A stretch of DNA of 64,000 nucleotides from Oscillospiraceae bacterium (GCA_902769255.1 CACXOM010000004.1:5100-69099); one strand, 5' to 3'; counted from the first letter of the stretch, positions 6,577-64,000 are shown. A program made the numbers and translations. The notes: generated by a model not told the origin, from the sequence alone.

Positions 6577-6579
6577 AAA

Positions 6580-7323: not shown

Positions 7324-7338
7324 AAAGGGGTGTTTTTT

Positions 7339-45374: not shown

Positions 45375-45403
45375 TTGACATATTTATATTTATATTATAT
45401 AAT
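45375..45403 (+). promoter_or_regulatory. consensus sigma-A promoter (TTGACA-17-TATAAT) heading the polysaccharide locus
   Basis: TTGACA at 45375-45380 and TATAAT at 45398-45403, spacer exactly 17 nt. Confidence 0.65.
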
Positions 45404-45476: not shown

Positions 45477-46151
45477 ATGGAAAAAACAAGTGAAAGAATA
45501 AGCGAAAATAAAATAGTTGAAAAGAAAAAATCTTCTTCAAAAAGGTTTTATTACGCAATAAAAAGATTGTTTGATATTTTGGGTTCTTTTTTGGGGCTTA
45601 TAATTTTATCGCCTTTATTGTTCATCATTTCTGCTACAATAAAAATTGAAGACGGCGGAAGTGTTTATTATGAACAAGAGCGTTTGGGCAAAGACGGCAA
45701 AACTTTTAAACTCTATAAATTCCGCAGCATGAAAGAAAATGCTGATGATTTAGAGAGTATGCTTACTCCCGAACAATTGGAACTTTATAAAAAAGAGTTC
45801 AAATTGGTTGATGACCCGAGAATTACTAAAGTGGGCAAATTTTTAAGAAAAACAAGCTTAGACGAGTTACCGCAAATGGTTAATATATTTTTGGGTGAGT
45901 TAAGCGTTATAGGTCCAAGACCTATTGTACAAGAGGAACTTGTTTGGTATGGTGAAGATGCCAAAAAGTTTTTGAGCGTAAAACCCGGACTTACTGGTTA
46001 TTGGCAAGCTTATGCCAGAAATGATGCCAACTATGTTTCTTGTAAGCGTCAAAAAATGGAGCTTTATTACATAGACAACCAGTCGGTGTGGTTAGATATT
46101 AAAATATTCTTCAAAACATTTACATCAATTTTAAGAAAAACAGGACAATAA
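45477..46151 (+). CDS. undecaprenyl-phosphate sugar phosphotransferase (small bacterial sugar transferase, priming enzyme)
   Basis: One TM, then YKFRSM, DELPQ and GPRP motifs of the Bac_transf family. Confidence 0.9.
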   Translation: MEKTSERISENKIVEKKKSSSKRFYYAIKRLFDILGSFLGLIILSPLLFIISATIKIEDGGSVYYEQERLGKDGKTFKLYKFRSMKENADDLESMLTPEQLELYKKEFKLVDDPRITKVGKFLRKTSLDELPQMVNIFLGELSVIGPRPIVQEELVWYGEDAKKFLSVKPGLTGYWQAYARNDANYVSCKRQKMELYYIDNQSVWLDIKIFFKTFTSILRKTGQ

Positions 46152-46221
46152 AATAAACTATTAATCCCGTTCGCTTTTTAAGAGAATGGGATATATGCAT
46201 TATTAAGGGAGGTGTTAAGCG

Positions 46222-47391: not shown

Positions 47392-47396
47392 TCCTT

Positions 47397-48410: not shown

Positions 48411-48427
48411 CAAAAAGGAGTAGAAAA

Positions 48428-49312
48428 ATGAAAGGTATTATTTTAGCAGGAGGTTCAGGAACAAGGCTTTATCCTATGACAATAGTAACCTCAAAACAGT
48501 TGCTACCTGTTTATGATAAGCCTATGATTTTTTATCCGCTTTCAACGCTTATGTTGGCAGGGATAAGAGATATTTTAATTATTACCACCCCTGATGACAG
48601 CGAAAGTTTTAAAAAATTGCTTGGTGACGGCAGCGATTTTGGTGTAAATCTTTCTTATGAAGTTCAGCCTTCGCCTGAAGGTCTTGCACAAGCGTTTATT
48701 ATAGGCGAAAAGTTTATTGGCGATGATTGTTGCGCTTTATGCCTTGGCGATAATATTTTTTACGGACACGGTTTTACCGAGAAACTGAAAAATGCAGTCG
48801 CAAACAGCAAAAAAGGTTTATGCACACTTTTCGGCTATTTTGTAAATGACCCTGAAAGATTTGGCGTTGCTGAATTTGATGGGAACGGCAATGTAATTTC
48901 TATTGAGGAAAAACCTAAAAAGCCAAAATCAAATTATGCGGTTACAGGACTTTATTTTTACGATAACAGAGTTGTTGATTTTGCAAAAAAAGTCAAGCCT
49001 TCTGCAAGAGGCGAGCTTGAAATCACAACTCTTAACAATATGTATTTGCAAGCGAATGCGGTTAAAGCGGAACTTTTAGGCAGAGGCTTTGCTTGGCTTG
49101 ATACAGGTACCGCTGATAGTTTAACGGAGGCTTCGGATTTTGTTAAAACAGTTCAGCAATCGGGTATTGAAATTGCATCACTTGAAGAAATTGCTTATAA
49201 TTTCGGTTGGATTGATACTAAAAAACTTTTATCAGTTGCTAAAAAATACGGCAAATCGAATTACGGAAAGTATTTGAAAAAAATAGCAGAGGAAAAAATT
49301 GTTATTAAGTAA
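48428..49312 (+). CDS. rfbA: glucose-1-phosphate thymidylyltransferase
   Basis: [18 protein letters not shown]..., [11 protein letters not shown] at 48428 follows AAGGAG. Confidence 0.93.
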
Positions 49313-49321
49313 GGAGAACTT

Positions 49322-50341
49322 ATGAAAATATTAGTTACGGGTGGAGCAGGTTTTATCGGCAGTAATTTTGTTTACTATGAACTTGAAAACTATCCTGATG
49401 ATAAAATAGTTTGCCTTGATGCTCTTACATACGCAGGTAACTTGCATACATTGGAAAATGCAATGCAAAATGAAAATTTCAAATTTGTAAGAGGCGATAT
49501 TGCTGACAGAGAATTGGTTTACAACCTTTTTGAACAAGAAAAGTTTGATATTGTTGTTAACTTTGCGGCTGAAAGCCATGTTGACAGAAGCGTTGAAAAT
49601 CCGGAAATTTTCTTGAAAACAAATATTATCGGCACATCGGTATTGATGGACGCTTGCAGAAAATACGGCATTAAGCGTTATCATCAGGTATCAACCGATG
49701 AGGTTTACGGCGACTTACCGCTTGACAGACCTGATTTGTTTTTCACCGAAACAACGCCTATTCACACTTCATCACCTTATTCTTCATCAAAAGCGGCAGC
49801 GGATTTGTTGGTTCAGGCTTACAACAGAACTTACGGCTTGCCTGTAACAATTTCGAGATGTTCAAATAACTATGGTCCTTATCACTTCCCTGAAAAATTA
49901 ATTCCGCTTATGATTTCCAGGGCTTTGGCTGATGAAAGTTTGCCTGTTTACGGCAAAGGCGAAAATGTCAGAGATTGGCTTTATGTAACTGACCATTGTT
50001 CTGCAATTGACCTTATTATCAGAAAAGGCAAAGAGGGCGAGGTTTATAATATAGGCGGTCATAATGAACGCACTAATTTAGAGGTTGTTAAAACAATTTT
50101 AAAGGTGTTAGATAAGCCTGAAAGTCTTATCACTTATGTAACCGACCGACCTGGTCATGATTTGAGATACGCTATTGACCCAACTAAAATTCATAATGAA
50201 CTTGGTTGGTTGCCGACAACAAAATTTGATGAAGGCATTAAAAAAACTGTAAAATGGTATCTTGATAATAAACCATGGTGGGAAGAAATTTTAAAAGGTG
50301 ATTATCAAAATTACTACGAAAAAATGTATGGGAATCGTTAA
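49322..50341 (+). CDS. rfbB: dTDP-glucose 4,6-dehydratase
   Basis: GGAGFIGSNF, STDEVYG, YSSSKAA. Confidence 0.93.
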   Translation: MKILVTGGAGFIGSNFVYYELENYPDDKIVCLDALTYAGNLHTLENAMQNENFKFVRGDIADRELVYNLFEQEKFDIVVNFAAESHVDRSVENPEIFLKTNIIGTSVLMDACRKYGIKRYHQVSTDEVYGDLPLDRPDLFFTETTPIHTSSPYSSSKAAADLLVQAYNRTYGLPVTISRCSNNYGPYHFPEKLIPLMISRALADESLPVYGKGENVRDWLYVTDHCSAIDLIIRKGKEGEVYNIGGHNERTNLEVVKTILKVLDKPESLITYVTDRPGHDLRYAIDPTKIHNELGWLPTTKFDEGIKKTVKWYLDNKPWWEEILKGDYQNYYEKMYGNR

Positions 50342-50344
50342 GCT

Positions 50345-51178
50345 ATGAAAGTATTAGTTACAGGAGCAAACGGTTATCTCGGTCAAGGCATTGTAAAACA
50401 GTTGCTTAATGATGGCAATGAAGTTATTGCAACTGATTTTGACTTAAAGTATGTTGATGACCGTGCTGAAAAGAGTATAGTTGATATTTTTTCTATTGAT
50501 AATCCTTATGAACATTTTTCAAAACCTGATGTTTTGCTACATTTAGCATGGCGTGATGGATTTAAGCATAATTCAAATGCTCATCTTGAAGATTTGCCAA
50601 AGCATTATTCTTTTATAGAGAAAATGATTAGTGGCGGATTAAAGCAAGTTTGTGTTATGGGAACTATGCATGAAATAGGATATTTTGAGGGTTGTGTTGA
50701 TGAAAATACACTTTGTAATCCTATGAATTTATACGGAATAGCAAAAAATGCTTTAAGAAATGCTGTTAAGATACTTTGTGAAAACAATAATGTGATTTTT
50801 CAGTGGCTTAGAGGTTATTATATTGTCGGTAACTCAAAATTTGGAAGTTCAATTTTTTCAAAAATAACCGAAGCAAATGAATGCGGTAAAAAAGAGTTTC
50901 CATTTACAACTGGAAAGAATAAATATGATTTTCTTGATTATGATGAATTTGCAGTACAAGTATCGGCAGTTTGCACACAGAATGATGTAAACGGAATAAT
51001 TAATATTTGTTCCGGAAAGCCTGTGAGTTTAGCTGATAGGGTTGAGAGATTTATCAAAGATAATAACTATGATATCAAATTAAAATATGGTGTATTTCCC
51101 GATAGAGCATACGATTCCGATGCTGTGTGGGGAAATAACGATAAGATTCAAAAAATATTAAAAGCGAAGAGATTATAA
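50345..51178 (+). CDS. NAD-dependent epimerase/dehydratase family protein, probable dTDP-4-keto-6-deoxyhexose reductase (not a typical RfbD)
   Basis: VTGANGYLGQGIV Rossmann motif and the YGIAK catalytic YxxxK. It occupies the slot between rfbB and rfbC where rfbD is expected. Confidence 0.55.
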   Translation: MKVLVTGANGYLGQGIVKQLLNDGNEVIATDFDLKYVDDRAEKSIVDIFSIDNPYEHFSKPDVLLHLAWRDGFKHNSNAHLEDLPKHYSFIEKMISGGLKQVCVMGTMHEIGYFEGCVDENTLCNPMNLYGIAKNALRNAVKILCENNNVIFQWLRGYYIVGNSKFGSSIFSKITEANECGKKEFPFTTGKNKYDFLDYDEFAVQVSAVCTQNDVNGIINICSGKPVSLADRVERFIKDNNYDIKLKYGVFPDRAYDSDAVWGNNDKIQKILKAKRL

Positions 51179-51733
51179 ATGAGTCAAATTAAAGTTACAA
51201 AAACGCCTATTGAAGGGCTTTATATTATCGAACCTACTGTTCATGGCGATGAACGAGGCTATTTTGTTGAAACTTATAACTTAAACGATATGAAAGAAGC
51301 AGGTCTTGATATGACTTTTGTTCAAGACAATCAGAGTATGTCGAAAAAAGGTGTGCTTAGAGGGTTGCATTATCAAAAGCAGTTTCCGCAAGGTAAATTG
51401 GTAAGGGTAATAAAGGGAAGCGTTTTTGATGTTGCGGTTGATTTGCGAAAAGATTCTAAAACCTACGGCAAATGGTATGGCATTGAGCTGACAGCGGAAA
51501 ACATGAAGCAGTTTTATATTTCACCCGGTTTTGCTCACGGATTTTTGGTATTGTCAGATACCGCCGAGTTTTGTTATAAATGTACCGACTTTTATCATCC
51601 GGGCGATGAGGGCGGCCTTATGTGGAACGACCCTGATATTGCAGTAGATTGGCCTTTAGAAGACGGCGTTGAATTAATAATTTCAGAAAAAGATAAAAAT
51701 AATTTAAGTTTTAAAGAAACATTTAAATTTTAA
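51179..51733 (+). CDS. rfbC: dTDP-4-dehydrorhamnose 3,5-epimerase
   Basis: GDERGYFVETY, LRGLHYQ, GFAHGF. Confidence 0.93.
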   Translation: MSQIKVTKTPIEGLYIIEPTVHGDERGYFVETYNLNDMKEAGLDMTFVQDNQSMSKKGVLRGLHYQKQFPQGKLVRVIKGSVFDVAVDLRKDSKTYGKWYGIELTAENMKQFYISPGFAHGFLVLSDTAEFCYKCTDFYHPGDEGGLMWNDPDIAVDWPLEDGVELIISEKDKNNLSFKETFKF

Positions 51734-51743
51734 GGTGTTATTT

Positions 51744-52811
51744 ATGAAAAAAGTATTGCTTATATCACATTACCCTCCTCCTGCAGGTGGAATTGCTACT
51801 TGGACAAAAAGGATATTATCAATTGGACTTCCAGATGGTTGGGAGATTGACCATGTGAATTCAAACACAATTAATGGTCGTGACCCATTTGAAAATACTA
51901 ATAGAAACATTAAGGATGAATATATAAGAAGTAAAAATATTTGGAAAAAAGAAAAAGATTTTTTGAAAAATGACAAAGATATAAAAGTAGTTCATACAAA
52001 TATTCCATGCACTATTTTTGGTATGATTAGAGAGACAGTAACAGGAATAATTGCAAAGAAATATAAAAAAAAGTTTATTCTTCATTGTCATTGTACTGTT
52101 CCGAATGTTGTAAATACTGGGTTTAAAAGATTTGTTTTTAAGATATTTTCAAAACTTTGTGATGGTATAATTGTTTTGAATAGACAATCTTATGATTTTG
52201 TTAAAGGTTTTAATGAAAAATTAGTTGTTGAAATAATACCTAATTTTGTGATGAAAGAAGAAACTAATATTAATAAACCAAAAATAATTAGAAATGAAAT
52301 TAAGAAAGTACTTTTTGTTGGAGGTGTAACCCCGGAAAAGGGTTGCGACACAATAATTCTTGCAGCTAAAAGCATTCCCAATATAGAGTTTAATTTAGTT
52401 GGTGCAGTTTCTGATGAAATTAAAAAAATGCCAAAAACAAACAATGTGGTTTTACATGGCGTTCAAAACTCTGACTATGTAAAGAATCAACTTGATGATA
52501 ATGATGTGTTTTTGTTTTTATCAAGATATTTTGGCGAAGGCTTTTCTTGCGCATTAACCGAGGCTATGGCAGCTGGATTACCTTGTATAGTAACTGATTG
52601 GGCAGCGAATGCTGATATGATTGATTATGGAAAAGGTGGGATTATTATTGACCAACAAGCGCCTAATCAATTGATTGAAGCAATTAATCAATTAGCTGAT
52701 GCGAGTAAAAGAAAAGAATTATCAGATTTTAATGTTAAAAGAGTTAAAGAAAATTATATTGAGAGTATAGTTTTAAAAAAATATACTGATTTTTATGACA
52801 TAATAGCATAA
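51744..52811 (+). CDS. glycosyltransferase family 4 (GT-B)
   Basis: C-terminal EGFSCALTEAMAAGLPCIVTD (E-x7-E region). ATG at 51744 lies 6 nt after AGGTG. Confidence 0.8.
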   Translation: MKKVLLISHYPPPAGGIATWTKRILSIGLPDGWEIDHVNSNTINGRDPFENTNRNIKDEYIRSKNIWKKEKDFLKNDKDIKVVHTNIPCTIFGMIRETVTGIIAKKYKKKFILHCHCTVPNVVNTGFKRFVFKIFSKLCDGIIVLNRQSYDFVKGFNEKLVVEIIPNFVMKEETNINKPKIIRNEIKKVLFVGGVTPEKGCDTIILAAKSIPNIEFNLVGAVSDEIKKMPKTNNVVLHGVQNSDYVKNQLDDNDVFLFLSRYFGEGFSCALTEAMAAGLPCIVTDWAANADMIDYGKGGIIIDQQAPNQLIEAINQLADASKRKELSDFNVKRVKENYIESIVLKKYTDFYDIIA

Positions 52812-52823
52812 AAAGGAAAAAAT

Positions 52824-53894
52824 ATGAAAATAATGTTTGTAATACCTTCACTGTCTTTTGGAGGTGCTGAAAGAGTTGTTTCAGTTTTATCAAATGAGCT
52901 TGTTGCTCAAGGAAATGATGTTCAGATTTTAATATATTTTAGAACTGAAAATGAATATCCAACTGATATAACAGTAAAAAAAGTATATCTTTCAAATGGT
53001 TTTGAAGATGATTATAATAAAATGAATTATTATAAAAGGCTTGCATTGTTAAGAAGAATAACCAAAGCATACAACCCTGATTATATAGTACCTTTTTTAT
53101 CGCATGTTTGTATTCAAACTTGTGTAGCACTCTTTGGATTGGATTATAAAATAATTCAAACTGTAAGAAATAATCCAAAAACTTTACCTAAAAATAAACT
53201 TCATAGATTCTTGAGAGATTTATTTATTAATCATTCATATAAAACTATTGTTCAGAATAATGAACAAAAAGATTATTTTTGTAAAAAGATTCATAATAAA
53301 ATTTTTGTTTTGCCGAATCCAGTAAGAGAAGAGTTATTTCAAGCTGAAAAGAATAAGAAGTCAGATAAATTTATTATTGCATCTGCTGGCAGATTGACTT
53401 ATCAAAAAAACTTTAAACTGCTTATTGATTCTGTTGAGAATATTTGTAAAGAGAATAGCAATGTTATTTTGCAGATTTATGGTGACGGCGAGTTAAAAGA
53501 AGAATTGCAGAGTTACATTAATGGAAAAAAGCTTGATAAAAGTGTATTTTTAATGGGAAGAACCGATGATATGAAATCTATGTTTGAGAGTATAGATTTA
53601 TACATATTATCTTCAGATTTCGAAGGTATGCCGAATTCATTGATGGAAGCAATGGCAGCAGGAGTTCCGTGTATTTCAACCGATTGTCCGACTGGTCCTT
53701 CAGATTTAATTGTTGATGGAGAAAGCGGTCTTTTAGTTCCGGTAAATGATAGCATAGCAATGGAAAATGCTATTAGAAAAATGCTTTTTAAATTAGATAA
53801 AGAGCATTTAGCTAATCAAGCCAGAATTTTTATAAAAAATAGTTATTCTGCCAAAATTATTGTTTCAAAATTAATGCATATTTTACAAGGATAG
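52824..53894 (+). CDS. glycosyltransferase family 4 (GT-B)
   Basis: FGGAERVV N-terminus, EGMPNSLMEAMAAGVPCISTD. Confidence 0.85.
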   Translation: MKIMFVIPSLSFGGAERVVSVLSNELVAQGNDVQILIYFRTENEYPTDITVKKVYLSNGFEDDYNKMNYYKRLALLRRITKAYNPDYIVPFLSHVCIQTCVALFGLDYKIIQTVRNNPKTLPKNKLHRFLRDLFINHSYKTIVQNNEQKDYFCKKIHNKIFVLPNPVREELFQAEKNKKSDKFIIASAGRLTYQKNFKLLIDSVENICKENSNVILQIYGDGELKEELQSYINGKKLDKSVFLMGRTDDMKSMFESIDLYILSSDFEGMPNSLMEAMAAGVPCISTDCPTGPSDLIVDGESGLLVPVNDSIAMENAIRKMLFKLDKEHLANQARIFIKNSYSAKIIVSKLMHILQG

Positions 53895-54107
53895 GTGATT
53901 TAAATAATATTATCAAAAAACCATTCAAATGGTAGTATAGATATTGCTTCAATACGCAATTTTTTCCTTTTTATATATTTTTGTGCAATATCCGGCTGTC
54001 AGACAAATGAAGGATTTGATTATGTATTTTCATTATCTTCATTTGTATTTTTTGTAGGTATTAGTTTTATAATTCAAATTAATGAGGGAAGTTTTAAATT
54101 TAATAAC

Positions 54108-55187
54108 ATGATTTTATGGATTTGTGTTTTTTTTGGTTTTGCCTGTTTATCAATTATTTGGGCTCCCTCTAATGGTAGCGTTTTATCGTTGAACACTACA
54201 TTTTTACAATTAATATTTATTGTATTTTGTTTGACTAATATAATAAAAAACGATGAAGATATTGAACTTGTTTTAAAGTGTTTGATTTATTCATTGTTAT
54301 TTACTGCGATAATGCTTTTAATTAGAACGCCTTTTGAACAATGGGGCACAGAACGTATAGGTGAATCAATTGGATTGAATTCTAATGATGTTGGATTTCG
54401 TTTCGCTATAGGTATTATTCTGTCTTTTTATTTTGTTAATACTAAAAAAAAGTATTATTATATTATTTATATAATTGCATTTATGTTGTTGGTAATCTTT
54501 TCTGGATCACGAAAAGGATTTATAATGGCAGTTGTTGGAATTATAGTGAGTAGTATTTATTCAGGAAGAAAAAATAAAGATTATAAAGCTATTCTCTCAA
54601 AATTGTTAAAAATTGTTTTCGCAAGTATCGCTTTAATTTTAATTGCGCATTTTGTAATGAACAATAAGATATTTTATTCAATAATTGGAGTTAGAATGGA
54701 AGATTTGTTTTCAGCAGTTGTAGGTGAATCTTCAGGTGACGCAAGCATTATTGAAAGAAATTTTTTTAAAGAACAGGCTTGGCAGTTGTTTTTAAGTCAT
54801 CCTTTTATAGGATATGGACACAATTGTTTTCCGGTTTATTTGAAATCCATTGGTTACGGGGTCTTAACTTATTCACATAATAATTATTTGGAATTACTTA
54901 GTTCTACAGGCATTGTTGGCTTTGCTATATATTATTCAATGATCATTTCAATGTTGATAAGCTTGTTAAAGATGTGGTTTTGTAAGAAAAAAAATGGTCC
55001 TATCCTTTTTGTTTTTACTTTTATTATGTTATTGGTTTTATTTATTTCATGGTGGCAAGTAAATTATTCAAGTAAGTTTTTAATTGTTATTTATTCTTTG
55101 GTTTACATGTTTATTAAAGTGGAAAAAAAGGGAGGATTATACAATAATGAATTGGAAAAGACTAATCATTGCAATAACCAACCCTAA
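54108..55187 (+). CDS. wzy: O-antigen polymerase/ligase-family membrane protein (Wzy-like)
   Basis: Polytopic membrane protein with GSRKGF and the GYGHNCF...YSHNNYLELLSSTGIVGF Wzy_C-type loop. The frame is open a further 68 codons upstream without a canonical start (see findings). Confidence 0.75.
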   Translation: MILWICVFFGFACLSIIWAPSNGSVLSLNTTFLQLIFIVFCLTNIIKNDEDIELVLKCLIYSLLFTAIMLLIRTPFEQWGTERIGESIGLNSNDVGFRFAIGIILSFYFVNTKKKYYYIIYIIAFMLLVIFSGSRKGFIMAVVGIIVSSIYSGRKNKDYKAILSKLLKIVFASIALILIAHFVMNNKIFYSIIGVRMEDLFSAVVGESSGDASIIERNFFKEQAWQLFLSHPFIGYGHNCFPVYLKSIGYGVLTYSHNNYLELLSSTGIVGFAIYYSMIISMLISLLKMWFCKKKNGPILFVFTFIMLLVLFISWWQVNYSSKFLIVIYSLVYMFIKVEKKGGLYNNELEKTNHCNNQP

Positions 55188-56064
55188 AAAAATAGTTCAA
55201 TATTTTGAAACAAAAGGTATATTTAACCGTTTGTCTGATAAAAAATATTTGAATTTAATGTATAGACTTCAAATGGGAAAGAAGCTAGACCTTGATAATC
55301 CAAAAACTTTTAATGAAAAGCTTCAATGGCTGAAACTGTATGACAGAAATCCAGAGTATACAAAATTAGTTGATAAATATGAAGTTAAAAAAATAGTAGC
55401 TGATAAAATAGGAGCGGAATACATAATACCAACACTTGGTGTATGGGACAAGTTTGATGATATTGATTTTGATAAGTTGCCGAATCAATTCGTATTAAAA
55501 TGCACTCATGATAGCGGCGGTTTGGTTATTTGTAAAGATAAATCTAAATTTGACATTAAATCGGCAAAAAAGAAAATTAACAGAAGCTTAAGAAGCAATT
55601 ATTATTATCATGGCCGTGAATGGCCGTATAAAAATGTTGAGCCAAGAATAATTGCTGAAGAATTTTTAAGTGATGACGATAATGTTGAAAGTGGTTTAAC
55701 TGATTACAAATTCTTTTGTTTTGATGGACTTGCTTATAGCGTGATGATATGTATTGATAGAAATACTGGCGATCCAAAATACTATTTTTTTGATAAAAGC
55801 CGTAAACTATTAAGATTAAACAAAAGAAGTAAACTAGTCTCTGATGATTTTCATGTCAATTTTCCAGATTGTATTGATAAAATGTTTGATTTAGCAGAAA
55901 AACTATCAGAAGGATTTCCTCATGTGAGGGTTGATTTGTTTTCTTCAAAAAACAAACCTTATTTTGGTGAATTGACCTTTTTTTCAGAGTCAGGAATGGA
56001 TAATAATCTATTACCCGAGGCAGAAAAAATATTTGGAGATTTAATTAATCTTGAAAAAGTATAA
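55147..56064 (+). CDS. TupA-like ATP-grasp amidoligase
   Basis: NPKTFNEKLQWLKLYDRNP, FVLKCTHDSGG, DYKFFCFDG, VRVDLF...YFGELTF. ATG at 55147 follows GGGAGGA. Confidence 0.75.
   Translation: MNWKRLIIAITNPKKIVQYFETKGIFNRLSDKKYLNLMYRLQMGKKLDLDNPKTFNEKLQWLKLYDRNPEYTKLVDKYEVKKIVADKIGAEYIIPTLGVWDKFDDIDFDKLPNQFVLKCTHDSGGLVICKDKSKFDIKSAKKKINRSLRSNYYYHGREWPYKNVEPRIIAEEFLSDDDNVESGLTDYKFFCFDGLAYSVMICIDRNTGDPKYYFFDKSRKLLRLNKRSKLVSDDFHVNFPDCIDKMFDLAEKLSEGFPHVRVDLFSSKNKPYFGELTFFSESGMDNNLLPEAEKIFGDLINLEKV
55450..55663 (+). repeat. 214-nt segment repeated at 57986-58199 (31 mismatches by my ungapped count)
   Basis: Manual alignment of the two ATP-grasp genes. The flanks are much more divergent. Confidence 0.8.
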
Positions 56065-56085
56065 AGAATATTATAGAGGTGCAAC

Positions 56086-57039
56086 ATGAAAACAGTTGGT
56101 TTTCCAATTAGTCATAAAGAGAATGAAAATAGAAGAGCAATATTGCCTGAACAAATAAAATTGATGGAAAATCCCAATTTTTTGTTTTTCGAGAACGGAT
56201 ATGGAGATGTTTTAGGAATATCTGATAAAGAATTCTTAAAAATAGGCTGTAATATTTGTTCTCATGAAGAAGTATTCACAAAAGATATAATTTGTGATCC
56301 TAAAGTAGGAGATGGCGATTATTTGAATGCTCTAAATAATCAAACTATTTTTGGTTGGGTTCATGCTACTCAGAATAGAGAAATAACTGATAAATTAATT
56401 AATAACAAGTTAACCGCATATGCGTGGGAAAACATGTTTCATCAAGGTCGTCATATTTTTTGGAGAAATAATGAATTAGCTGGAGAGGCAGCAGTTATGC
56501 ATGCTTTCCAATGCTTTGGTAGAATGCCTTATGAAACAAAGGTAGCTGTAATAGGTCGTGGGAACACTGCTCGTGGTGCTTTAAAGGTTCTTAGTATGTT
56601 AGGTGCTGATATTATTCAGTATGATAGACATACAGAAAAATTATTGAGAGAAGAAATATCTGACTATGATGTAATTGTAAATTGTGTTTTATGGGATGTT
56701 ATGCGAAAAGATCATATAGTTTTTAAAGAAGACCTTAAAAGAATGAAAAAAAATGCAATGATTATTGATGTAAGCTGTGATAAAAATGGCGGTATTGAAA
56801 CAAGCGTTCCTACTACAATTGACAATCCTACATATTATGTTGATGGGATTATGCATTATGTTGTTGATCATACACCAACATTGTTTCATAAAACTTTTTC
56901 AATTAATAATTCAAAAGTCATTTATAAATACATTGAGCAATTAATGGAGGATTGTATTGATGCAGATTTAAGAAACGCTCTTGTCGTTGAAAGAGGAAAC
57001 ATAATAGATGAAAGCATAATTAAGTTTCAGGGTAGATAA
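56086..57039 (+). CDS. AlaDH/PNT-family dehydrogenase resembling N5-(carboxyethyl)ornithine synthase
   Basis: MKTVGFPISHKENENRRAILPE start, VIGRGNTARGA Rossmann motif, about 317 aa. This matches my recollection of the Lactococcus CEOS family; no search was run. Confidence 0.55.
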   Translation: MKTVGFPISHKENENRRAILPEQIKLMENPNFLFFENGYGDVLGISDKEFLKIGCNICSHEEVFTKDIICDPKVGDGDYLNALNNQTIFGWVHATQNREITDKLINNKLTAYAWENMFHQGRHIFWRNNELAGEAAVMHAFQCFGRMPYETKVAVIGRGNTARGALKVLSMLGADIIQYDRHTEKLLREEISDYDVIVNCVLWDVMRKDHIVFKEDLKRMKKNAMIIDVSCDKNGGIETSVPTTIDNPTYYVDGIMHYVVDHTPTLFHKTFSINNSKVIYKYIEQLMEDCIDADLRNALVVERGNIIDESIIKFQGR

Positions 57040-57083
57040 TAAATTGGTTTTATAATAATGTAAAAATATAGAAAGGTATATTT

Positions 57084-57902
57084 ATGAAAATAATTATAGG
57101 AGCAGATTTAGTACCTACTAGTTCAAACTGTGATTTATTTAAATCAGGAGATATTGATCAGATTTTTGGTAAAAAAATTATTGAAATACTAAAATCTGCC
57201 GATTATTCGGTGTTTAATCTTGAAGTACCATTATATAATGGAGATACACCTATTAATAAGTGTGGACCTGTATTGAGTTCGGAAACATCAACTATTTGCG
57301 GAATAAAAGCATTAAATCCTTATTTATTATCAATAGCTAATAATCATATTTTAGATCACGGTGAAGATGGTTTAATCAGCACAATAAATACACTTGAAGA
57401 AAATGACATCAATTACATTGGTGCAGGAAAGGATTTAGAAAGTGCAAAAAAACCATTTATAATTGATAATGGTGAAGTTAAAGTTGGAATATATTCTTGC
57501 GCAGAACATGAGTTTTCAATAGCATCTGAAAAAAGCCCAGGAGCTAATCCTTTTGACGCTTTATACTCTTTGGATGATATTCAGGTTTTAAAATCAAAAG
57601 TTGATTATGTAATCGTGTTATTTCATGGAGGAAAAGAATTATATAGATATCCAACGCCTATGCAACAAAAAAGATGTAGACGTATGATTGAAAAAGGCGC
57701 TGATGTTGTAATTTGTCAGCATAGTCATTGTGTTGGATGTGAGGAAATATATAATAATGGCACCATTGTATATGGACAAGGTAATTTTTTGTTTGATATA
57801 TCAAATTGTGATGAATTCAAAACAGGCTTGTTAACTGAAATTAATATAGATAAAACTGGAATTACAGTTTCCTATATTCCAATAATTAAAAAAATAATTT
57901 AG
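57084..57902 (+). CDS. CapA-family (PGA_cap, metallophosphatase-fold) protein, apparently C-terminally truncated
   Basis: IANNHILDHGEDGL, INYIGAG, FHGGKE and CQHSH motifs. Ends right after an A7 tract, and a second frame continues open from there (see findings). Confidence 0.65.
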   Translation: MKIIIGADLVPTSSNCDLFKSGDIDQIFGKKIIEILKSADYSVFNLEVPLYNGDTPINKCGPVLSSETSTICGIKALNPYLLSIANNHILDHGEDGLISTINTLEENDINYIGAGKDLESAKKPFIIDNGEVKVGIYSCAEHEFSIASEKSPGANPFDALYSLDDIQVLKSKVDYVIVLFHGGKELYRYPTPMQQKRCRRMIEKGADVVICQHSHCVGCEEIYNNGTIVYGQGNFLFDISNCDEFKTGLLTEINIDKTGITVSYIPIIKKII

Positions 57903-57922
57903 TTAGATTAGATGAGAATAGT

Positions 57923-58591
57923 TTGATTATTTCACATTTTAAAAAACGGTCAGAAGAAATAACACATGACGGTGTAGTTAATAAAAAGTTTGACGATATT
58001 GATTTTGATAAATTGCCAAATCGATTTGTATTAAAATGCACTCACGATAGTGGCGGCTTGGTTATTTGTAAAGACAAATCACAATTTGATGTTAAATCAG
58101 CTAAAAAAAGAATTAACAAGTGTTTAAAAAGAAACTATTATTATCATGGACGTGAATGGCCGTATAAAAATGTAAAACCGCGAATAATTGCTGAAGAATA
58201 TAAAGAAGATTCTAATTCTAGAGAATTGTGTGATTATAAGTTCTTTTGCTTTGATGGTAAGGTAAAAGCATTATTTATAGCCTCGGATAGACAGAAAAAT
58301 GGAGAAGAAACAAAATTTGATTTTTTTGATGAAAATTTTAATTTTTTACCGTTTACCAATGGACATCCTAATGCCAGTATATTACCTGAAAAGCCTAAAA
58401 ATTTTGAAAAAATGAAATTATTATCTCAGAAATTGTCTAAAGGGTTTGCACATGTTAGAGTGGATTTTTACGAAGTGGATAATAAAGTTTATTTCGGTGA
58501 AATAACACTTTCACATTGGAGTGGAATGGTTCCATTTGTACCTGAAGAGTGGGATTTGAAACTAGGAAATCTTTTACAATTGAATGATTAA
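57923..58591 (+). pseudogene. TupA-like ATP-grasp paralog lacking about 100 N-terminal residues (remnant, or 3' part of a frameshifted CapA fusion)
   Basis: Aligns with 55147-56064 only from KFDDIDFDKLP onward. Has only a TTG start with no convincing RBS. Its frame opens exactly at the A7 tract ending the CapA ORF. Confidence 0.5.
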
Positions 58592-58656
58592 GTTTTCTTT
58601 TTCATCTATAGATTATTTGTTGTTGCGAAAAGTAGTTTTAATAATGGAGGGTTTTT

Positions 58657-59574
58657 ATGAATAGTACTGTTGCAATTGTTGTTACTTATAATAGAAAAAA
58701 GCTTTTAGAAGAGAACATTAATGCACTTTTAAATCAGAAATACAAGTGTGATATATTGGTAATAGATAATGCAAGCACTGATGGTACAGATAAAATGGTA
58801 AGTGAGTTCAACGATGGTAGAATTATTTATGTTAACACGGGAAAAAATTTAGGTGGTGCTGGAGGGTTTTCTTTCGGTGTAAAAAAAGCTATAGAAAAAG
58901 GTTATGAATTCGGTTGGATTATGGATGATGATTCTATTGCTAATGAAAATGCGCTTGAAAGTCTGCAGCAAAAAGCAAAAATGGTTGATTATAATTTTTC
59001 TTTTTTTGCATCATTAGTTTATTGGATTGACAAAAAGATTTTTCCAATGAACTATGCTGACTTTATATCATATAATAAAAATAATAGCATTAATACTGCG
59101 GATTTAATCAGTAAATATAAAATTGCAGAAATAGACAGTTGTTCTTTTGTTGGTTGTTTTGTGAATTTGAAGATAGCAAAGCAAATAGCTCTACCAATTG
59201 CAGACTTTTTTATTTATGGCGATGATATAGAATATACTAGAAGATTAAGCAGAAAAGAGAAGGCTTATATTGATTTTGACAGCATTATTGTTCACAAGGC
59301 TCCATCTAATATTGGATGTGACATAAGATACGCATCAATTAATCGAATCGACAGATTCTTCTATCAATCTAGAAATGGTATGTATATGGCTAAACGGGAT
59401 GGTTATATTTTTAAAAGATTAAAGATATTTATTAAACGAATAATAGGAATAATGTTTAAATCAAAAGATAATAAAGTTAAAAGAATAATAGTTTTAATTA
59501 AAGGAACGTTGGCTGGATTGAGATTCAATCCCAAACTAGAATATGTTGATGACGAAACAATAAAAGGAGAGTAA
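58657..59574 (+). CDS. glycosyltransferase family 2 (likely galactofuranosyl- or rhamnosyl-transferase)
   Basis: VAIVVTYNRKKLL...LVIDNASTDGT and the DDD region. Lies immediately upstream of glf. Confidence 0.8.
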   Translation: MNSTVAIVVTYNRKKLLEENINALLNQKYKCDILVIDNASTDGTDKMVSEFNDGRIIYVNTGKNLGGAGGFSFGVKKAIEKGYEFGWIMDDDSIANENALESLQQKAKMVDYNFSFFASLVYWIDKKIFPMNYADFISYNKNNSINTADLISKYKIAEIDSCSFVGCFVNLKIAKQIALPIADFFIYGDDIEYTRRLSRKEKAYIDFDSIIVHKAPSNIGCDIRYASINRIDRFFYQSRNGMYMAKRDGYIFKRLKIFIKRIIGIMFKSKDNKVKRIIVLIKGTLAGLRFNPKLEYVDDETIKGE

Positions 59575-59576
59575 TT

Positions 59577-60674
59577 ATGTATGACTATTTGATTGTGGGA
59601 GCGGGGCTTTTTGGTTCTTTATTTGCTTATGAAGCAAATAAAAATGGAAAAAATGTTCTAGTAATAGATAAACGCAACCATGTTGGTGGTAATATTTTTA
59701 CAGAAAATGTTGAAAGAATAAATGTACATAAATACGGCGCACATATTTTTCATACTGATGATAAAAGAATATGGGATTATATAAATCAGTTTGCCGATTT
59801 TAACAATTATATTAATTGTCCTATTGCAAGATATAAAAATGAAGTTTATAATTTGCCGTTTAATATGAATACTTTTTCAAGGCTTTGGGGAGTAATTACT
59901 CCAGAACAGGCAAGAGAAAGGATTAATCAACAGATTAAAGAGGCTAATATAATTGAACCTCAAAACCTTGAAGAACAAGCGATATCTTTGGTGGGAAAAG
60001 ATATTTATGAAAAGCTTATTAAAGGCTATACTGAAAAACAATGGGGTAGAAAAGCAAAGGAATTGCCAGCATTTATAATAAAAAGAATACCAGTAAGATT
60101 TACATATAATAATAATTATTTCAATGATCGCTATCAAGGCATCCCTATTGGAGGCTATACTAATATAATTAAAAAAATGTTAGATGGTATTGATGTTAAA
60201 CTTAATACTGATTTTTTTGATAAGCGAGAATACTATATGAATAGCGCAAAAAGGATTATATTTACTGGTATGATAGATGAATTTTATAATTATTGTTTTG
60301 GAGAACTCGAATATAGAAGTCTTAAATTTGAAACAGAAGTATTAAACATTGAGAATTTTCAAGGTAATGCAGTAGTTAATTATAATGAGTTTGAAGTGCC
60401 TTATACAAGAATTATTGAGCATAAGCATTTTGAATTTGGCACGCAGAAAAAAACAGCCATTACTCGTGAATACCCTGTTGCTTGGCATCGTGGCGATGAG
60501 CCATATTATGCAATTAATAATGAAAAGAATAATAATTTATATAAAAAGTATGAAGAGTTGGCTAAAAGTGAAAACAAAGTTGTTTTTGGTGGTAGACTAG
60601 GTATGTATAAGTATTTCGATATGGATGATACAATAAAAGCAGCTTTGGAGTTAAGTAAAAAGGAGTTTAAATAA
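59577..60674 (+). CDS. glf: UDP-galactopyranose mutase
   Basis: YDYLIVGAGLFGS FAD motif, YGAHIFHT, YTEKQWG, IIEHKHF, GRLGMYKY. Confidence 0.93.
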   Translation: MYDYLIVGAGLFGSLFAYEANKNGKNVLVIDKRNHVGGNIFTENVERINVHKYGAHIFHTDDKRIWDYINQFADFNNYINCPIARYKNEVYNLPFNMNTFSRLWGVITPEQARERINQQIKEANIIEPQNLEEQAISLVGKDIYEKLIKGYTEKQWGRKAKELPAFIIKRIPVRFTYNNNYFNDRYQGIPIGGYTNIIKKMLDGIDVKLNTDFFDKREYYMNSAKRIIFTGMIDEFYNYCFGELEYRSLKFETEVLNIENFQGNAVVNYNEFEVPYTRIIEHKHFEFGTQKKTAITREYPVAWHRGDEPYYAINNEKNNNLYKKYEELAKSENKVVFGGRLGMYKYFDMDDTIKAALELSKKEFK

Positions 60675-61658
60675 TTGGAAAATATAATGGTAAGCATATG
60701 CTGTATTACATATAATCATGAGCATTTCATAAAAAAAGCGTTGGATGGCTTCTTGATGCAAAAAACAAGTTTTAAATATGAAATCTTAATCCATGATGAT
60801 GCTTCAACTGATAATACAGCGACAATTATTAGAGAGTATGAAAAAGAGTATCCAGATATAGTAAAACCGATTTATCAAACAGAAAATCAATATAGTAAAG
60901 GAGTAAAGATTTCAAATACATATAATTATCCCAGGGTACAAGGCAAATATATAGCAATTTGTGAAGGAGATGATTTCTGGACTGATGAGAATAAGTTGCA
61001 AAAGCAAGTTGATTTTTTAGAAAGTCATTTAGATTATTCAATGTGTTGCCATTCTGCATATCATGTTGATACAGAAGATAATATTATTGATATTAAAGGT
61101 CCGTTTTTTGAAAAAGGTACGTTAACCGCAAATGAAGTAATAGTTCAGGAAAAAGGCTGGATAGCCACCGCAAGTATATTATTTAGAATAGAAGTATTAT
61201 CAAATACTCCGGAATTCTTTCATGAGGTTTCAGTCGGTGATTATCCTTTAAAATTAAACTGTTTTTCAAAAGGAAAAGTATATTTTGATGACAGTATTAT
61301 GTCTGCTTATAGGATTTCATTGTCGGAAAAAGTAATAAAAGACTCATATATGTATCAAATGAAAAAAAATAGTGCTAAAAAAATAAATAACTATAATAGC
61401 ATTAATAATTTTCTTGATAAATATGATGAGTATACCGAGTTTAAATATCATGAATTTGTTTTGATTGAAATCAGTCGAAATAATTTATTAATTAATATTG
61501 AGCTTGGTAATATTAAAGAAATAAAGAATAACGATTATTTTAAAAAACAATCTTTTAAATATAGAGTTGGAATTTTGTGTAAAATCAAACACCCCTTTTT
61601 GTATAAGATTATTAAGAGAGTTTTTGTTTTGTTAAGGAAAATACGTAATGTCAGATAG
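60675..61658 (+). CDS. glycosyltransferase family 2
   Basis: VSICCITYNHEHFI...IHDDASTDNT...CEGDDFW. TTG at 60675 lies 9 nt after AAGGAG; ATG at 60687 is an alternative start. Confidence 0.8.
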   Translation: MENIMVSICCITYNHEHFIKKALDGFLMQKTSFKYEILIHDDASTDNTATIIREYEKEYPDIVKPIYQTENQYSKGVKISNTYNYPRVQGKYIAICEGDDFWTDENKLQKQVDFLESHLDYSMCCHSAYHVDTEDNIIDIKGPFFEKGTLTANEVIVQEKGWIATASILFRIEVLSNTPEFFHEVSVGDYPLKLNCFSKGKVYFDDSIMSAYRISLSEKVIKDSYMYQMKKNSAKKINNYNSINNFLDKYDEYTEFKYHEFVLIEISRNNLLINIELGNIKEIKNNDYFKKQSFKYRVGILCKIKHPFLYKIIKRVFVLLRKIRNVR

Positions 61659-63126
61659 TAATTTAAAGAGTAAAACCCTTTCGGGCTTTTTTTGGCGTTT
61701 TGCTGAAAGGTGCGGTGCACAAGGCGTAGGATTTATAGTTTCGCTTGTTCTTGCTCGTTTAATAGTGCCGAAAATGTTTGGCGTTGTAGCCTTAATTACT
61801 GTTTTTACAAATATTTTGCAAGTGTTTGTTGACAGCGGCCTTGGCAGCGCTTTGATACAGAAAAAAGATGCAGATGACCTTGATTTTTCTAGCGTTTTCT
61901 ATTTTAATTTCGGCATGTGTACATTTTTGTATATTGTCATGTTTTTTGTGGCTCCTTTAATTGATAAGGGATTATATGCCGGAAAATATGATAATTTAAC
62001 AGATTATATTAGAGTTTTAAGTCTTGTGCTTATTATTTCAGGTGTTAAAAATATACAGCAAGCGTATGTTTCAAGAAAAATGATTTTTAAAAGATTTTTC
62101 TTTGCAACACTTGGCGGAACAATAATGGCGGCAATAGTTGGTATTTCTATGGCATTTTATTTGCCACCTCAATATAGAGTTTGGGCAATTATCGCGCAAA
62201 ATCTTACAAATAAAATAATTGATACAGTAGTTTTGTGGTTCACTGTTAAATGGCGACCTAAATTAATGTTTTCTTTGAAAAGATTAAAAGGTTTGTGGGC
62301 TTATGGCTGGAAACTTTTGTGTTCTTCATTAATTGATGTATTTTATAATAATATCAGACAATTATTAATAGGCAGTCTTTACACTTCGAGTGATTTGGCG
62401 TTTTATAACAGAGGAAAACAGTTTCCTGAAATTGCTATTTCAAATATTAATATATCTATTGACAGTGTGTTGTTCCCTGCTATGTCAAAAGAACAAGATG
62501 ATAAAGAAAAAGTTAAGGCAATGACACGACGTTCAATAAAGATAAGCAGTTTTATTATTTGGCCTATTATGATGGGGTTAGCAGCGGTTGCCAAGCCAAT
62601 GATTATTTTTTTAATTGGAGAAAAGTGGCTTAACAGTGTTTTGTTTTTAAGAATATTCTGTGTAACTTTTGCTTTTTGGCCAATTCATACGGCAAATTTG
62701 AATTCGATAAAAGCATTAGGCAGAAGTGATATATTCTTAAAACTTGAAATACTAAAAAAAGTTGTAGGTGTAACACTTCTTTTATCAACAATATTTATTA
62801 GCGTTGAAGCAATGGCTTATAGTTTGTTTTTAAGTTCCGTTTGCAGTCAGATAATAAATACTTATCCAAATAAAAAATTATTGAACTACTCATATCTTGA
62901 ACAATTAAAAGATATTGCACCATGTGTTTTAATTTCCGTTTTTATGGCAGCAGTAGTTTATTTGATAGGCTTAATAAATATTAATTATATAGTTTTGTTA
63001 TTTATTCAAATATTAGTCGGAATAATCGTTTATTTAGGATTGTCTGTATTATTTAAAATAGATAGTTTAAACTATATCAAAGATATTATTAATAAATTCT
63101 ACAAAACAAAAATTAAACATAGTTAA
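61648..63126 (+). CDS. wzx: polysaccharide flippase (Wzx, MOP superfamily)
   Basis: About 12-14 TM segments. N-terminal GFFWRFAERCGAQGVGFIVSLVLARLI is typical of Polysacc_synt proteins. Confidence 0.85.
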   Translation: MSDSNLKSKTLSGFFWRFAERCGAQGVGFIVSLVLARLIVPKMFGVVALITVFTNILQVFVDSGLGSALIQKKDADDLDFSSVFYFNFGMCTFLYIVMFFVAPLIDKGLYAGKYDNLTDYIRVLSLVLIISGVKNIQQAYVSRKMIFKRFFFATLGGTIMAAIVGISMAFYLPPQYRVWAIIAQNLTNKIIDTVVLWFTVKWRPKLMFSLKRLKGLWAYGWKLLCSSLIDVFYNNIRQLLIGSLYTSSDLAFYNRGKQFPEIAISNINISIDSVLFPAMSKEQDDKEKVKAMTRRSIKISSFIIWPIMMGLAAVAKPMIIFLIGEKWLNSVLFLRIFCVTFAFWPIHTANLNSIKALGRSDIFLKLEILKKVVGVTLLLSTIFISVEAMAYSLFLSSVCSQIINTYPNKKLLNYSYLEQLKDIAPCVLISVFMAAVVYLIGLININYIVLLFIQILVGIIVYLGLSVLFKIDSLNYIKDIINKFYKTKIKHS

Positions 63127-63137
63127 AGGATTTTTAT

Positions 63138-63908
63138 ATGATAGATTTTGCGCAAAAAGTTTTAACATCACCGCTTAATAAAACTCATTTATTCTATTTA
63201 GGACAAGCGGGATTTGTTATCAAATCTTCAACAGGAAAAGTATTAGGAATAGATATGTATCTTTCAGAATGTGTTGAAAGAGTTGAAGGACATATGGGAT
63301 TTAAAAGATTGTTACCAAAAATACTAAATCCTGATGATATTGATTTTGATTGTATAATAGCATCACACCCGCATCTTGACCATTTTGACATGGATTCTAT
63401 TCCGCAACTTATGTATAACGGACATACAAAATTATTTGCTTCTGTTGAATGCGAAAAAGAAGTAAAAAATTTGAAAATGAGTAATGACAATATAACATAT
63501 GTAAAACCGAGCGAAAGTTATATTTCCGGCGACTTTAAACTTGATTTTATAAATTGTGACCATGGAACAGGGGCGCCTGATGCGGTGGGTGTAATAATAA
63601 CAGTTGATAACAAAAGAATTCTTTTTGTCGGTGATACTTGTTTAAGATTAGACAGAGTTAGTGAATATACTTCAAAAGGTGATATTGATATATTGCTTGC
63701 ACCTATTAACGGCGCTTACGGAAATCTTAATGAAGATGAATGCGCAAAACTCAGTAGTGCTGTCAATGCGAAGCTTACAATTCCTTGCCATTATGGTATG
63801 TTTGCTTCACATGGCGGAAATCCGGGATTGTTTTATAAAATAATGCGAGAAAAATATCCTGAAAAAAACATGTTAATTATGAGTGTTGGTGAAAAATATA
63901 CTTTTTAA
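63138..63908 (+). CDS. MBL-fold metallo-hydrolase (UlaG-like subgroup)
   Basis: ASHPHLDHFD metal motif and later D/H ligands (CDHG, GDT, CHYG). Confidence 0.7.
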   Translation: MIDFAQKVLTSPLNKTHLFYLGQAGFVIKSSTGKVLGIDMYLSECVERVEGHMGFKRLLPKILNPDDIDFDCIIASHPHLDHFDMDSIPQLMYNGHTKLFASVECEKEVKNLKMSNDNITYVKPSESYISGDFKLDFINCDHGTGAPDAVGVIITVDNKRILFVGDTCLRLDRVSEYTSKGDIDILLAPINGAYGNLNEDECAKLSSAVNAKLTIPCHYGMFASHGGNPGLFYKIMREKYPEKNMLIMSVGEKYTF

Positions 63909-63924
63909 TAGGAGATAAAGGAAA

Positions 63925-64000
63925 ATGAATGATAAATTCAAAGGAAAAAAGTTATTAATAATGGGCGCAAACCCCGAAACTATTCCATTGGTAGAATTAG
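63925..64000 (+). CDS. partial ORF (N-terminus only), possibly an ATP-grasp enzyme
   Basis: ATG at 63925 follows GGAGATAAAGGAAA. MNDKFKGKKLLIMGANPETIPLVEL resembles the pre-ATP-grasp Rossmann start. Only 25 codons are visible. Confidence 0.3.
   Translation, partial: MNDKFKGKKLLIMGANPETIPLVEL

Follow-up and report, generated by a model that had tools for sequence, protein, structure and literature searches.

Known amidoligases and opine synthases, and the locus compared with them

The N5-(carboxyethyl)ornithine synthase (CEOS; EC 1.5.1.24) of Lactococcus lactis/cremoris catalyzes the reductive condensation of pyruvate with the side-chain amine of ornithine or lysine, and its products are free intracellular amino acids. 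TupA of Bacillus halodurans, which is linked to teichuronopeptide, is the founding member of the ATPgrasp_TupA family (PF14305), and the TupA-like proteins were reportedly defined as a family by Iyer et al. in 2009. Here, we analyzed a polysaccharide locus in which genes of these two kinds lie side by side. It is contained in a stretch of 64,000 nucleotides from an Oscillospiraceae bacterium (GCA_902769255.1, CACXOM010000004.1:5100-69099; hereafter the window, with positions counted from its first letter), where an intact, stand-alone gene for a TupA-like ATP-grasp protein (TupA1, 55147-56064) is followed on the same (+) strand by a gene for a CEOS-like, NAD(P)-dependent enzyme of the alanine dehydrogenase/transhydrogenase (AlaDH/PNT) fold (56086-57039). 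We consider it reasonably probable, from comparison of genes and genomes, that this pair (55147-57039) is the working unit, in which an opine-type amino acid would be made and amide-linked to a sugar acid.

The individual parts of this proposal are already known, i.e., an ATP-grasp amidoligase that acts on a glycan, CEOS itself, and the chemistry of carboxyethyl-lysine (Cet-Lys). What is new, in the literature searched, is the pairing of the two enzymes as a decoration module, a match between genes and structure in Proteus, and the breadth of the pair in anaerobic Firmicutes and Bacteroidota. Carboxyethyl-lysine and opine-like substituents of O-antigens have long been known chemically, and no genes have been assigned to them in the literature searched. 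Likewise, no paper that connects CEOS-like genes with the decoration of polysaccharides was found, in a search that lay outside the subscription literature on Providencia and Proteus genetics.

The capsule locus of Campylobacter jejuni HS:2 (Cj1438, with Cj1435/1436/1437) resembles that of the window in containing a TupA-like ATP-grasp domain, which there forms the C-terminal amidoligase of Cj1438. This domain carries out the ATP-dependent amidation of the C6 carboxylate of glucuronic acid (GlcA) on the growing capsule chain, using a dedicated amine that is made by dedicated neighboring enzymes (PMC11800379). However, the amines in HS:2 are serinol phosphate or ethanolamine phosphate, and a phosphatase step follows; the ligase is fused to a family 2 glycosyltransferase (GT2), whereas that of the window is a separate protein with a CEOS-like enzyme as its partner. 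The description of the HS:2 system, from which the likeness is drawn, includes no partner of the AlaDH fold.

The chemistry that we propose for the window is that of the carboxyethyl-lysine uronamides of Proteus (O13, O60), Providencia (O14) and related O-antigens, although their carriers are O-antigens of Gram-negative bacteria and ugd lies inside the Proteus clusters. TupA-like proteins, e.g. WemR of Proteus, have been predicted to attach amino acids to polysaccharides of the cell surface (PMC13419641). In contrast to the CEOS-like gene of the window, the Lactococcus CEOS gene is solitary, residing on a plasmid away from any ligase or glycan gene.

Identity of the two enzymes and conservation of their pairing

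An earlier reading of the window, made from the sequence alone (the first-pass annotation), had assigned PF14305, AlaDH_PNT and PGA_cap domains to this region, and Pfam confirmed all three with E-values far beyond chance. TupA1 scored 229 bits against PF14305 (cut-off, 25; E = 6e-68), over profile positions 1-240 of 241. Its open reading frame (ORF) is full-length, free of lesions, and 99.5% identical in nucleotide sequence to that of a sister allele (L002). TupA1 is 49% identical to the TupA-like protein of Bariatricus, and a sequence search of the Protein Data Bank (PDB) with TupA1 gave chance-level matches only.

The product of the adjoining gene, which is also a full-length ORF and is 100% identical in nucleotide sequence to its L002 counterpart, matched AlaDh_PNT_N (1e-12) and AlaDh_PNT_C (7e-22). 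Its score against the alanine dehydrogenase equivalog TIGR00518 was 92.6 bits, below the cut-off of 391.85, and it matched no curated CEOS model in NCBIfam. PDB matches were confined to AlaDH and transhydrogenase dI, at 20-25% identity. Saccharopine dehydrogenase (Lys1/LKR structures) was not matched in a single-sequence search, and a family profile gave marginal, partial matches to saccharopine dehydrogenase/LKR (E 1e-5 to 1e-7). An AlphaFold2 (AF2) model of the protein (pLDDT 93) superposed on the AlaDH-NAD-pyruvate complex of M. tuberculosis with a TM score of 0.87. Arg16, Lys73 and His93 aligned with the Arg, Lys and His of AlaDH, which we take to be its pyruvate-binding residues, and were invariant in two family alignments.

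Several results place this enzyme with CEOS. The best annotated tblastn matches were CEOS-type genes of Lactococcus plasmids (32%, 1e-34), with ald genes at 25-27%, and a homologue 71% identical to the window protein is named CEOS by NCBI. In a tree, the Lactococcus CEOS grouped with the window's clade and a proteobacterial/actinobacterial clade, and three AlaDHs fell apart from them. The window enzyme and the Lactococcus CEOS have in common the AlaDH/PNT fold, the invariant Arg/Lys/His, a short chain (317 and 310 amino acids, respectively) and the lack of an insertion found in AlaDH. The proteins differ in one motif, which is VDHTP in the window's clade and in the proteobacterial O-antigen type, VPNTP in the Lactococcus CEOS, and V(A/P)N(M/Q)P in AlaDHs. 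The proteobacterial CEOS-like proteins are longer than that of the window by about 50 residues, and a 32-residue insertion is seen in the related E. coli plasmid type. Thus, the resemblance to CEOS noted in the first-pass annotation was upheld, and the clustering with alanine or saccharopine dehydrogenases that it had named as telling against its proposal was seen neither in the tree nor in the model and profile scores. We rejected an identity as an ordinary alanine dehydrogenase, given the score far under the TIGR00518 cut-off and the separate position in the tree, as well as an identity as saccharopine dehydrogenase, for which the profile matches were marginal and partial.

Homologues of the CEOS-like protein are numerous (3982 protein clusters at E<=1e-5, the best 120 of which are all at least 69% identical to it), and a genome scan found at least 80 species-level loci whose identity was 57% or higher. 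This clade belongs mainly to Clostridia and Bacteroidota, with single representatives from Spirochaetes, Lentisphaerae, Verrucomicrobia and Coriobacteriia. Its cultured members include Acetanaerobacterium elongatum CGMCC 1.5012 (L036), in which ugd and an epimerase gene accompany the pair, Bariatricus sp. SGI.154 (L004/L008) and Capnocytophaga stomatis W5 (L073). For a survey of adjacent genes we used 90 species-level loci of the clade, 67 of which had at least 1.2 kb on both sides. A same-strand ATP-grasp gene was present within 200 bp of the CEOS-like gene in 53 of the 67, and an ATP-grasp gene within 6 kb in 60. The ligases in the 53 loci were TupA-like only (36), ATPgrasp_ST (PF14397) only (7), both of these (6), or RimK-like (4). 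The fact that three unrelated ATP-grasp families have been exchanged while the adjacency was kept suggests that the CEOS-like product, or a glycan-bound precursor of it, is the substrate of an ATP-dependent ligation.

A sister clade served as the control. Its members, mostly from Actinobacteria and 40-46% identical to the Providencia type, had an adjoining ligase in only 1 of 78 loci (L118, among L103-L180). The CEOS-like proteins of these loci are about 370-385 amino acids long and are labelled alanine dehydrogenase or CEOS by different sources; save for L118, they have no ATP-grasp or glycan neighbors. Within the window's own clade, solitary CEOS-like genes occur in a few members, e.g. Listeria booriae, and no natural fusion of CEOS with a ligase was found among all loci examined. 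ATPgrasp_ST neighbors were seen in L016, L082, L086, L087 and L092, and RimK-like neighbors in L027, L047, L071, L073, L083, L088, L098 and L099. The RimK-like ligase had no Pfam match at 1e-3 and weak NCBIfam matches only.

The surroundings of the pair were informative as well. The order GT4-Wzy-TupA-CEOS of the window recurs in other species (L038, L039, L045, L049, L066), which suggests that the adjoining family 4 glycosyltransferase (GT4) and Wzy handle the decorated residue. In Bariatricus the order is ugd-epimerase-GT-CEOS-TupA, while two further loci (L020, L021) contain an uninterrupted PGA_cap-TupA-CEOS-ugd run with spacers of 0-22 bp. In the 47 loci with flanks of at least 8 kb, ugd was present within 10 kb in 19, a PGA_cap gene within 3 kb in 10, and a DegT-type aminotransferase gene within 10 kb in 7. 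Altogether, as judged from gene neighborhoods, polysaccharide loci contain the ATP-grasp and CEOS-like genes as a conserved module, often found beside ugd and a 4-epimerase gene.

A search with the proteobacterial type of CEOS-like protein retrieved homologues from Aeromonas, Shewanella, Vibrio, Providencia and Edwardsiella. O-antigen clusters of Proteus lie between cpxA and secB. In P. myxofaciens ATCC 19692 (contig NZ_LXEN01000085.1, L102), cpxR and cpxA are followed by genes for a CEOS-like protein (362 amino acids) and a TupA-like protein (PF14305, 1.2e-43), at which point the contig ends. The O60 antigen of P. myxofaciens is reported to have the repeat ->4)-D-GlcpA6(S-Cet-L-Lys)-(b1->6)-D-GalpNAc-(a1->6)-D-GlcpNAc-(b1->3)-D-GlcpNAc-(b1->, with Cet standing for 1-carboxyethyl (S4 table, PMC5560731); the main text of that paper mentions lysine, carboxyethyl and ATP-grasp nowhere. 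The statement in the first-pass annotation that such substituents are known from Proteus was therefore correct, and the pair stands at the start of the very locus whose product is reported to contain GlcA6(S-carboxyethyl-L-Lys). In Providencia rettgeri, cpxA is followed by wzi, a RimK-like ATP-grasp gene, a CEOS-like gene, wzx, GT4, GT2, wzy, a 4-epimerase gene (gla), ugd and wza-wzb-wzc.

Two further observations concern the proteobacterial genes and structures. An E. coli plasmid (NZ_AP027746.1, 168960-179543; L027) carries a capsule-type cluster between IS91 copies, in which a RimK-like ATP-grasp and CEOS-like pair is accompanied by an epimerase gene and ugd, and which resembles the chromosomal cluster of Providencia rettgeri. 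The Proteus O14 antigen is given with R-carboxyethyl-ethanolamine phosphate (S4 table, PMC5560731), suggesting that the substrates of CEOS-like enzymes may extend to amines other than amino acids.

Proposed reactions and the identity of the acceptor

In the pathway that we favor, the CEOS-like enzyme would join an alpha-keto acid, which is most probably pyruvate, to the side-chain amine of lysine, ornithine or a similar diamino acid in an NAD(P)H-dependent condensation, and the product would be an N-(1-carboxyethyl) amino acid. TupA1 would convert the carboxylate of a sugar to an acyl phosphate, the likeliest target being C6 of GlcA or galacturonic acid (GalA) on the lipid-linked repeat unit, and would then form an amide with the alpha-amino group of the carboxyethyl amino acid on the cytoplasmic side. 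As an alternative order, lysine might be ligated first and carboxyethylated on the glycan afterwards. The decorated unit would be flipped by Wzx and polymerized by Wzy. The idea of a carboxyethyl amino acid in amide linkage to a sugar carboxylate was already contained in the first-pass annotation; the conserved pair and the O60 antigen of P. myxofaciens now provide comparative evidence for it, with the substrates themselves assigned by inference.

The first-pass annotation had also called for a uronic-acid pathway in this genome. The genes that bear on this point were found by comparing the window (46083-64000) with contigs L002, L007, L184, L186, L188 and L189, which revealed one species-level lineage with at least three mosaic alleles that have common left and right arms and a swapped middle. 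L002 is collinear with window positions 46083-58001 (blastn), and the GT4a-GT4b-Wzy-TupA1-CEOS-PGA_cap segment is 98-100% identical in nucleotide sequence between the two, compared to 78-95% for the genes upstream. The GT2-Glf-GT2-Wzx block (58657..63126) constitutes the variable middle cassette, being 93.8% identical in L186 and absent from L002. About 3.2 kb past the window end, a contig of the window type (L184) rejoins the other alleles at a gene for a DesI-like aminotransferase (TIGR04427, 5e-88), which is 93% identical to those of L002 and L007 and 90% identical to that of L186. In the sister alleles, the right arm then continues with an acyltransferase gene (some alleles) and genes for a 348-amino-acid epimerase of the short-chain dehydrogenase/reductase (SDR) type, VanZ, an acetyltransferase, a 277-amino-acid protein and Ugd. 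This ugd encodes a UDP-glucose 6-dehydrogenase of the PRK15057 type (573 bits, over the cut-off of the nucleotide-sugar dehydrogenase subfamily), and the epimerase, a 4-epimerase, scored about 500 bits against the Bariatricus epimerase whose gene adjoins ugd. Thus, the uronic-acid genes are present in the right arm of sister alleles and absent from the window. A variant of the epimerase (P0248), 97% identical to that of L002, suggests that this gene lies farther along the contig from which the window is taken, past the 64-kb mark.

A hexuronate catabolism operon is located at 2503-9665 of the window, with genes for the glucuronate isomerase UxaC, the mannonate dehydratase UxuA, one SDR, two xylose-isomerase-like TIM proteins and two GFO/IDH/MocA oxidoreductases. 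Degradation of uronic acids by this organism is probable, but the operon offers no route for UDP-uronate synthesis.

A number of points weigh against a uronic acid bearing a carboxyethyl amino acid as the product of this locus. Neither ugd nor a 4-epimerase gene is found within the 64-kb window, the L184 contig ends before the right-arm epimerase and ugd genes, and the presence of these two genes on the contig of the window strain is deduced from synteny. Across the clade, only about 40% of the loci had ugd within 10 kb; as neighbors were detected by phmmer with single seeds on incomplete contigs, these frequencies are approximate and are probably lower bounds. The identity of the enzyme to authentic CEOS is only 32-34%, so that its amine and keto-acid substrates remain inferred, and the tree was built by neighbor joining, without support values, and gave CEOS a modest margin over AlaDH. 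The link between genes and structure in Proteus is a single correlation, and the window proteins are only 33% (CEOS-like) and 38% (TupA-like) identical to those of P. myxofaciens. Finally, the DesI-like aminotransferase gene of the right arm points to a different possible acceptor.

That acceptor would imply the opposite polarity, with the ATP-grasp enzyme activating the opine carboxyl and N-acylating an amino sugar, likely a 4-amino-4,6-dideoxyhexose. RmlA and RmlB are encoded in the locus, which together with the aminotransferase gene, reached on the contig of the window type, would supply a route to such a sugar. There is also a precedent in the alanopine-Qui4N of Providencia alcalifaciens O35, and an alanopine derivative of 4-amino-4,6-dideoxyglucose is among the known structures (PMC10609480). 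We nevertheless regard this polarity as unlikely, since ugd is found near the pair in more of the loci surveyed (19 of 47) than is a DegT-type aminotransferase gene (7 of 47), the loci of P. myxofaciens and Providencia rettgeri are indicative of uronamides, and the TupA-like domain that has been characterized activates the carboxylate of the sugar (PMC11800379).

The ligase might instead attach an ordinary amino acid, such as alanine or lysine, with the AlaDH-fold enzyme acting as an amino-acid dehydrogenase that supplies it. Amides of uronic acids with unmodified amino acids are common, and both the fold and the putative pyruvate-binding residues of the enzyme are those of AlaDH. However, the wide margin by which the enzyme misses the alanine dehydrogenase model, its branching with CEOS and its VDHTP motif in place of V(A/P)N(M/Q)P all speak against this role, and a dedicated gene for alanine or lysine supply beside the ligase in 53 of 67 loci would be hard to explain. 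Moreover, the one strain for which both a reported structure and a visible pair are available has carboxyethyl-lysine and no plain lysine, making this explanation improbable in our judgment.

The PGA_cap remnant, the layout of the locus and its implications

The first-pass annotation described a cassette of four consecutive genes between wzy and the GT2/glf block. Inspection of ORFs in the window showed that four consecutive ORFs on the + strand do fill 55147-58591 and that the flanks are as described, but only the TupA-like and CEOS-like genes are intact. The third gene (57084-57902), which encodes a PGA_cap protein of the calcineurin-like fold (PF09587, 1.2e-51), has been cut to 272 amino acids from the 373 of the intact gene in L002, an allele without a second ATP-grasp gene. 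Alignment to L002 showed that the loss of a G has turned A5GA2 into an A7 run at 57888-57894, and the gene ends early because this 1-nt deletion shifts the frame and creates a stop at 57900-57902. The deletion is common to the window, L007 and the independent assemblies L001 and L003; the gene is frameshifted in all of these and in L189, and intact in L002, as are the copies of L020 and L021. PGA_cap is therefore probably a pseudogene in the window.

A second lesion lies just downstream, where homology to PGA_cap continues in the original frame, runs to 58001, and then switches into the middle of a TupA-like gene. The switch takes place at a 16-nt microhomology, AAGTTTGACGATATTG (57986-58001, + strand), which occurs both near codon 303 of PGA_cap and near codon 101 of TupA-like genes and which was located by blastn boundaries (46083-58001 and 57986-58199) and a three-way alignment. 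This is the window's left junction between arm and middle. The resulting ORF (57923-58591, + strand) is chimeric. Its residues 1-29 match residues 281-309 of the L002 PGA_cap (E 7.6e-10), with about 19-29 N-terminal amino acids being PGA_cap residues in the original frame, and the rest is the C-terminal two-thirds of another TupA paralogue that is 52% identical to TupA1. The match to ATPgrasp_TupA (4e-55) covers profile positions 43-240 only, and about 100 N-terminal residues are missing, short of a full-length domain. The second, truncated ATP-grasp of the first-pass annotation is thus a partial TupA domain, as had been described, within a PGA_cap/TupA chimera, and this composition identifies the ORF as a recombination scar, not a working second ligase. 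It marks the site at which recombination exchanged the middle of the locus. When the loci examined were searched for the donor of the TupA2-GT2-Glf segment, none contained a close full-length relative of TupA2, and an exact-match look-up of the GT2 from this segment returned the same locus only. The window is a clean example of capsule-locus mosaicism, with its junction resolved to the 16-nt microhomology.

With a scar and a frameshift immediately downstream, the middle of the locus replaced, and the locus existing as at least three mosaic alleles, the pair itself could be a functionless leftover of an earlier serotype, such that the window strain may no longer make the decoration. We doubt this, because both ORFs are perfectly preserved: they are full-length and 99.5-100% identical in nucleotide sequence to those of the sister allele. 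The arms have also been kept, with their GT4 genes, Wzy and, in sister alleles, the epimerase gene and ugd, and PGA_cap is absent from most loci that carry the pair.

Among solved structures, the closest relative of PGA_cap is MslH (E 6e-16), a lasso-peptide epimerase. MslH has the calcineurin fold and, by means of His88/Asp91 and His295/Asp11 around a metal, inverts a residue that stands at the C-terminus and bears a free carboxylate (PMC10406935). PGA_cap keeps counterparts of MslH Glu44, Asn87, His88, Asp91, His259 and His295, with Gly at the position of His261, and scored 74 bits against the MslH model (cut-off, 700). An N-uronoyl amino acid would locally resemble a peptide C-terminus, which makes a role as epimerase a reasonable idea; by analogy, such a role might apply in other loci, a suggestion that we offer with low confidence and that is irrelevant to the window strain if its gene is dead. 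A phosphatase role like that of Cj1435 was rejected, since the proposed pathway involves no phosphorylated amine. PGA_cap is an optional third partner elsewhere that is decaying in this lineage.

CapA/PgsA, like MslH and the PGA_cap of the window, have PF09587 and calcineurin-like motifs; the window protein differs from CapA/PgsA in being frameshifted, without Pgs partners and, by inspection of its N-terminus (MKIIIGADLVPTSS), without a hydrophobic helix or anchor. The first-pass annotation had connected the locus with poly-gamma-glutamate (CapA) systems and teichuronopeptide, and we found no support for this among the genes scanned or in the PGA_cap N-terminus. A system that builds a peptide chain attached to a uronic-acid polymer or next to it, as suggested by the family names TupA and PGA_cap and by the several loci in which two ATP-grasp genes could add two residues in succession, is very improbable here, as no PgsB/PgsC-type genes were present among the locus genes scanned with Pfam, PGA_cap is a probable pseudogene in the window, the locus is a repeat-unit system, and the CEOS-like partner would be left unexplained.

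The polysaccharide locus as a whole is a standard Wzx/Wzy repeat-unit system, and the closest genome is that of RUG12659, a metagenome-assembled Ruminococcaceae genome from the rumen. It is preceded by a putative promoter (45375..45403, + strand), a consensus match of the sigma-70 type (TTGACA-17-TATAAT, 12/12), and opens with the gene for a priming sugar-phosphate transferase (Bac_transf; 45477..46151, + strand; PF02397, 8.5e-63). Genes follow for NTP_transf_5, a WaaS/CpsH-type glycosyltransferase, RmlA, RmlB, a 277-amino-acid SDR, RmlC, two GT4 proteins and Wzy. The two GT4 genes (51735-52811 and 52824-53894, + strand), 99.3-99.4% identical in nucleotide sequence to those of L002, open the left-arm block, whose identity between alleles is 98-100%, and the wzy gene (54108-55187, + strand; Wzy_C, 2.3e-17) overlaps the start of the TupA1 gene by 41 nt. 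Beyond TupA1, the CEOS-like gene, PGA_cap and the chimeric ORF, the order is GT2 (58657-59574), Glf, a UDP-galactopyranose mutase (59577-60674), a second GT2 (60675-61658) and the Wzx flippase (61648-63126), all on the + strand and identified with Pfam/NCBIfam, and then a gene for an MBL-fold protein (63138-63908).

Other features of the region were noted. A GH5 cellulase gene (44003-45310) lies directly upstream of the locus. The 277-amino-acid SDR (50345-51178) occupies the slot between RmlB and RmlC where RmlD would be expected and gave no match to the rmlD model, so the 6-deoxyhexose that is made may not be L-rhamnose. Beyond the window, the corresponding part of L184 (13269-16484) encodes a 429-amino-acid ATP-grasp protein (CPSase/Ddl-like), an SDR and LicD. 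Together with the MBL-fold protein, these form a second possible decoration set specific to the window's allele; in other alleles, a different ATP-grasp protein, of 398 amino acids and the LAL type, takes the place of the post-Wzx set.

Beyond this one locus, we tentatively suggest, at odds that we put slightly short of even, that the combination of a CEOS-like and an ATP-grasp gene is the genetic basis of opine-type substituents on the surface glycans of bacteria, with a wide distribution among Clostridia and Bacteroidota of the gut and rumen and occurrence in other phyla as well, with an MslH-like PGA_cap epimerase acting on the N-acylated amino acid in some loci. If this is true, then the substituent would become predictable from sequence, and two activities, those of an opine synthase of a glycan pathway and of a stand-alone uronic-acid:amino-acid ligase, would be directly testable. 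Negatively charged or zwitterionic amino-acid decorations would then be expected in the capsules of many uncultured gut and rumen anaerobes, with a bearing on phage receptors, immune recognition and serotype switching.

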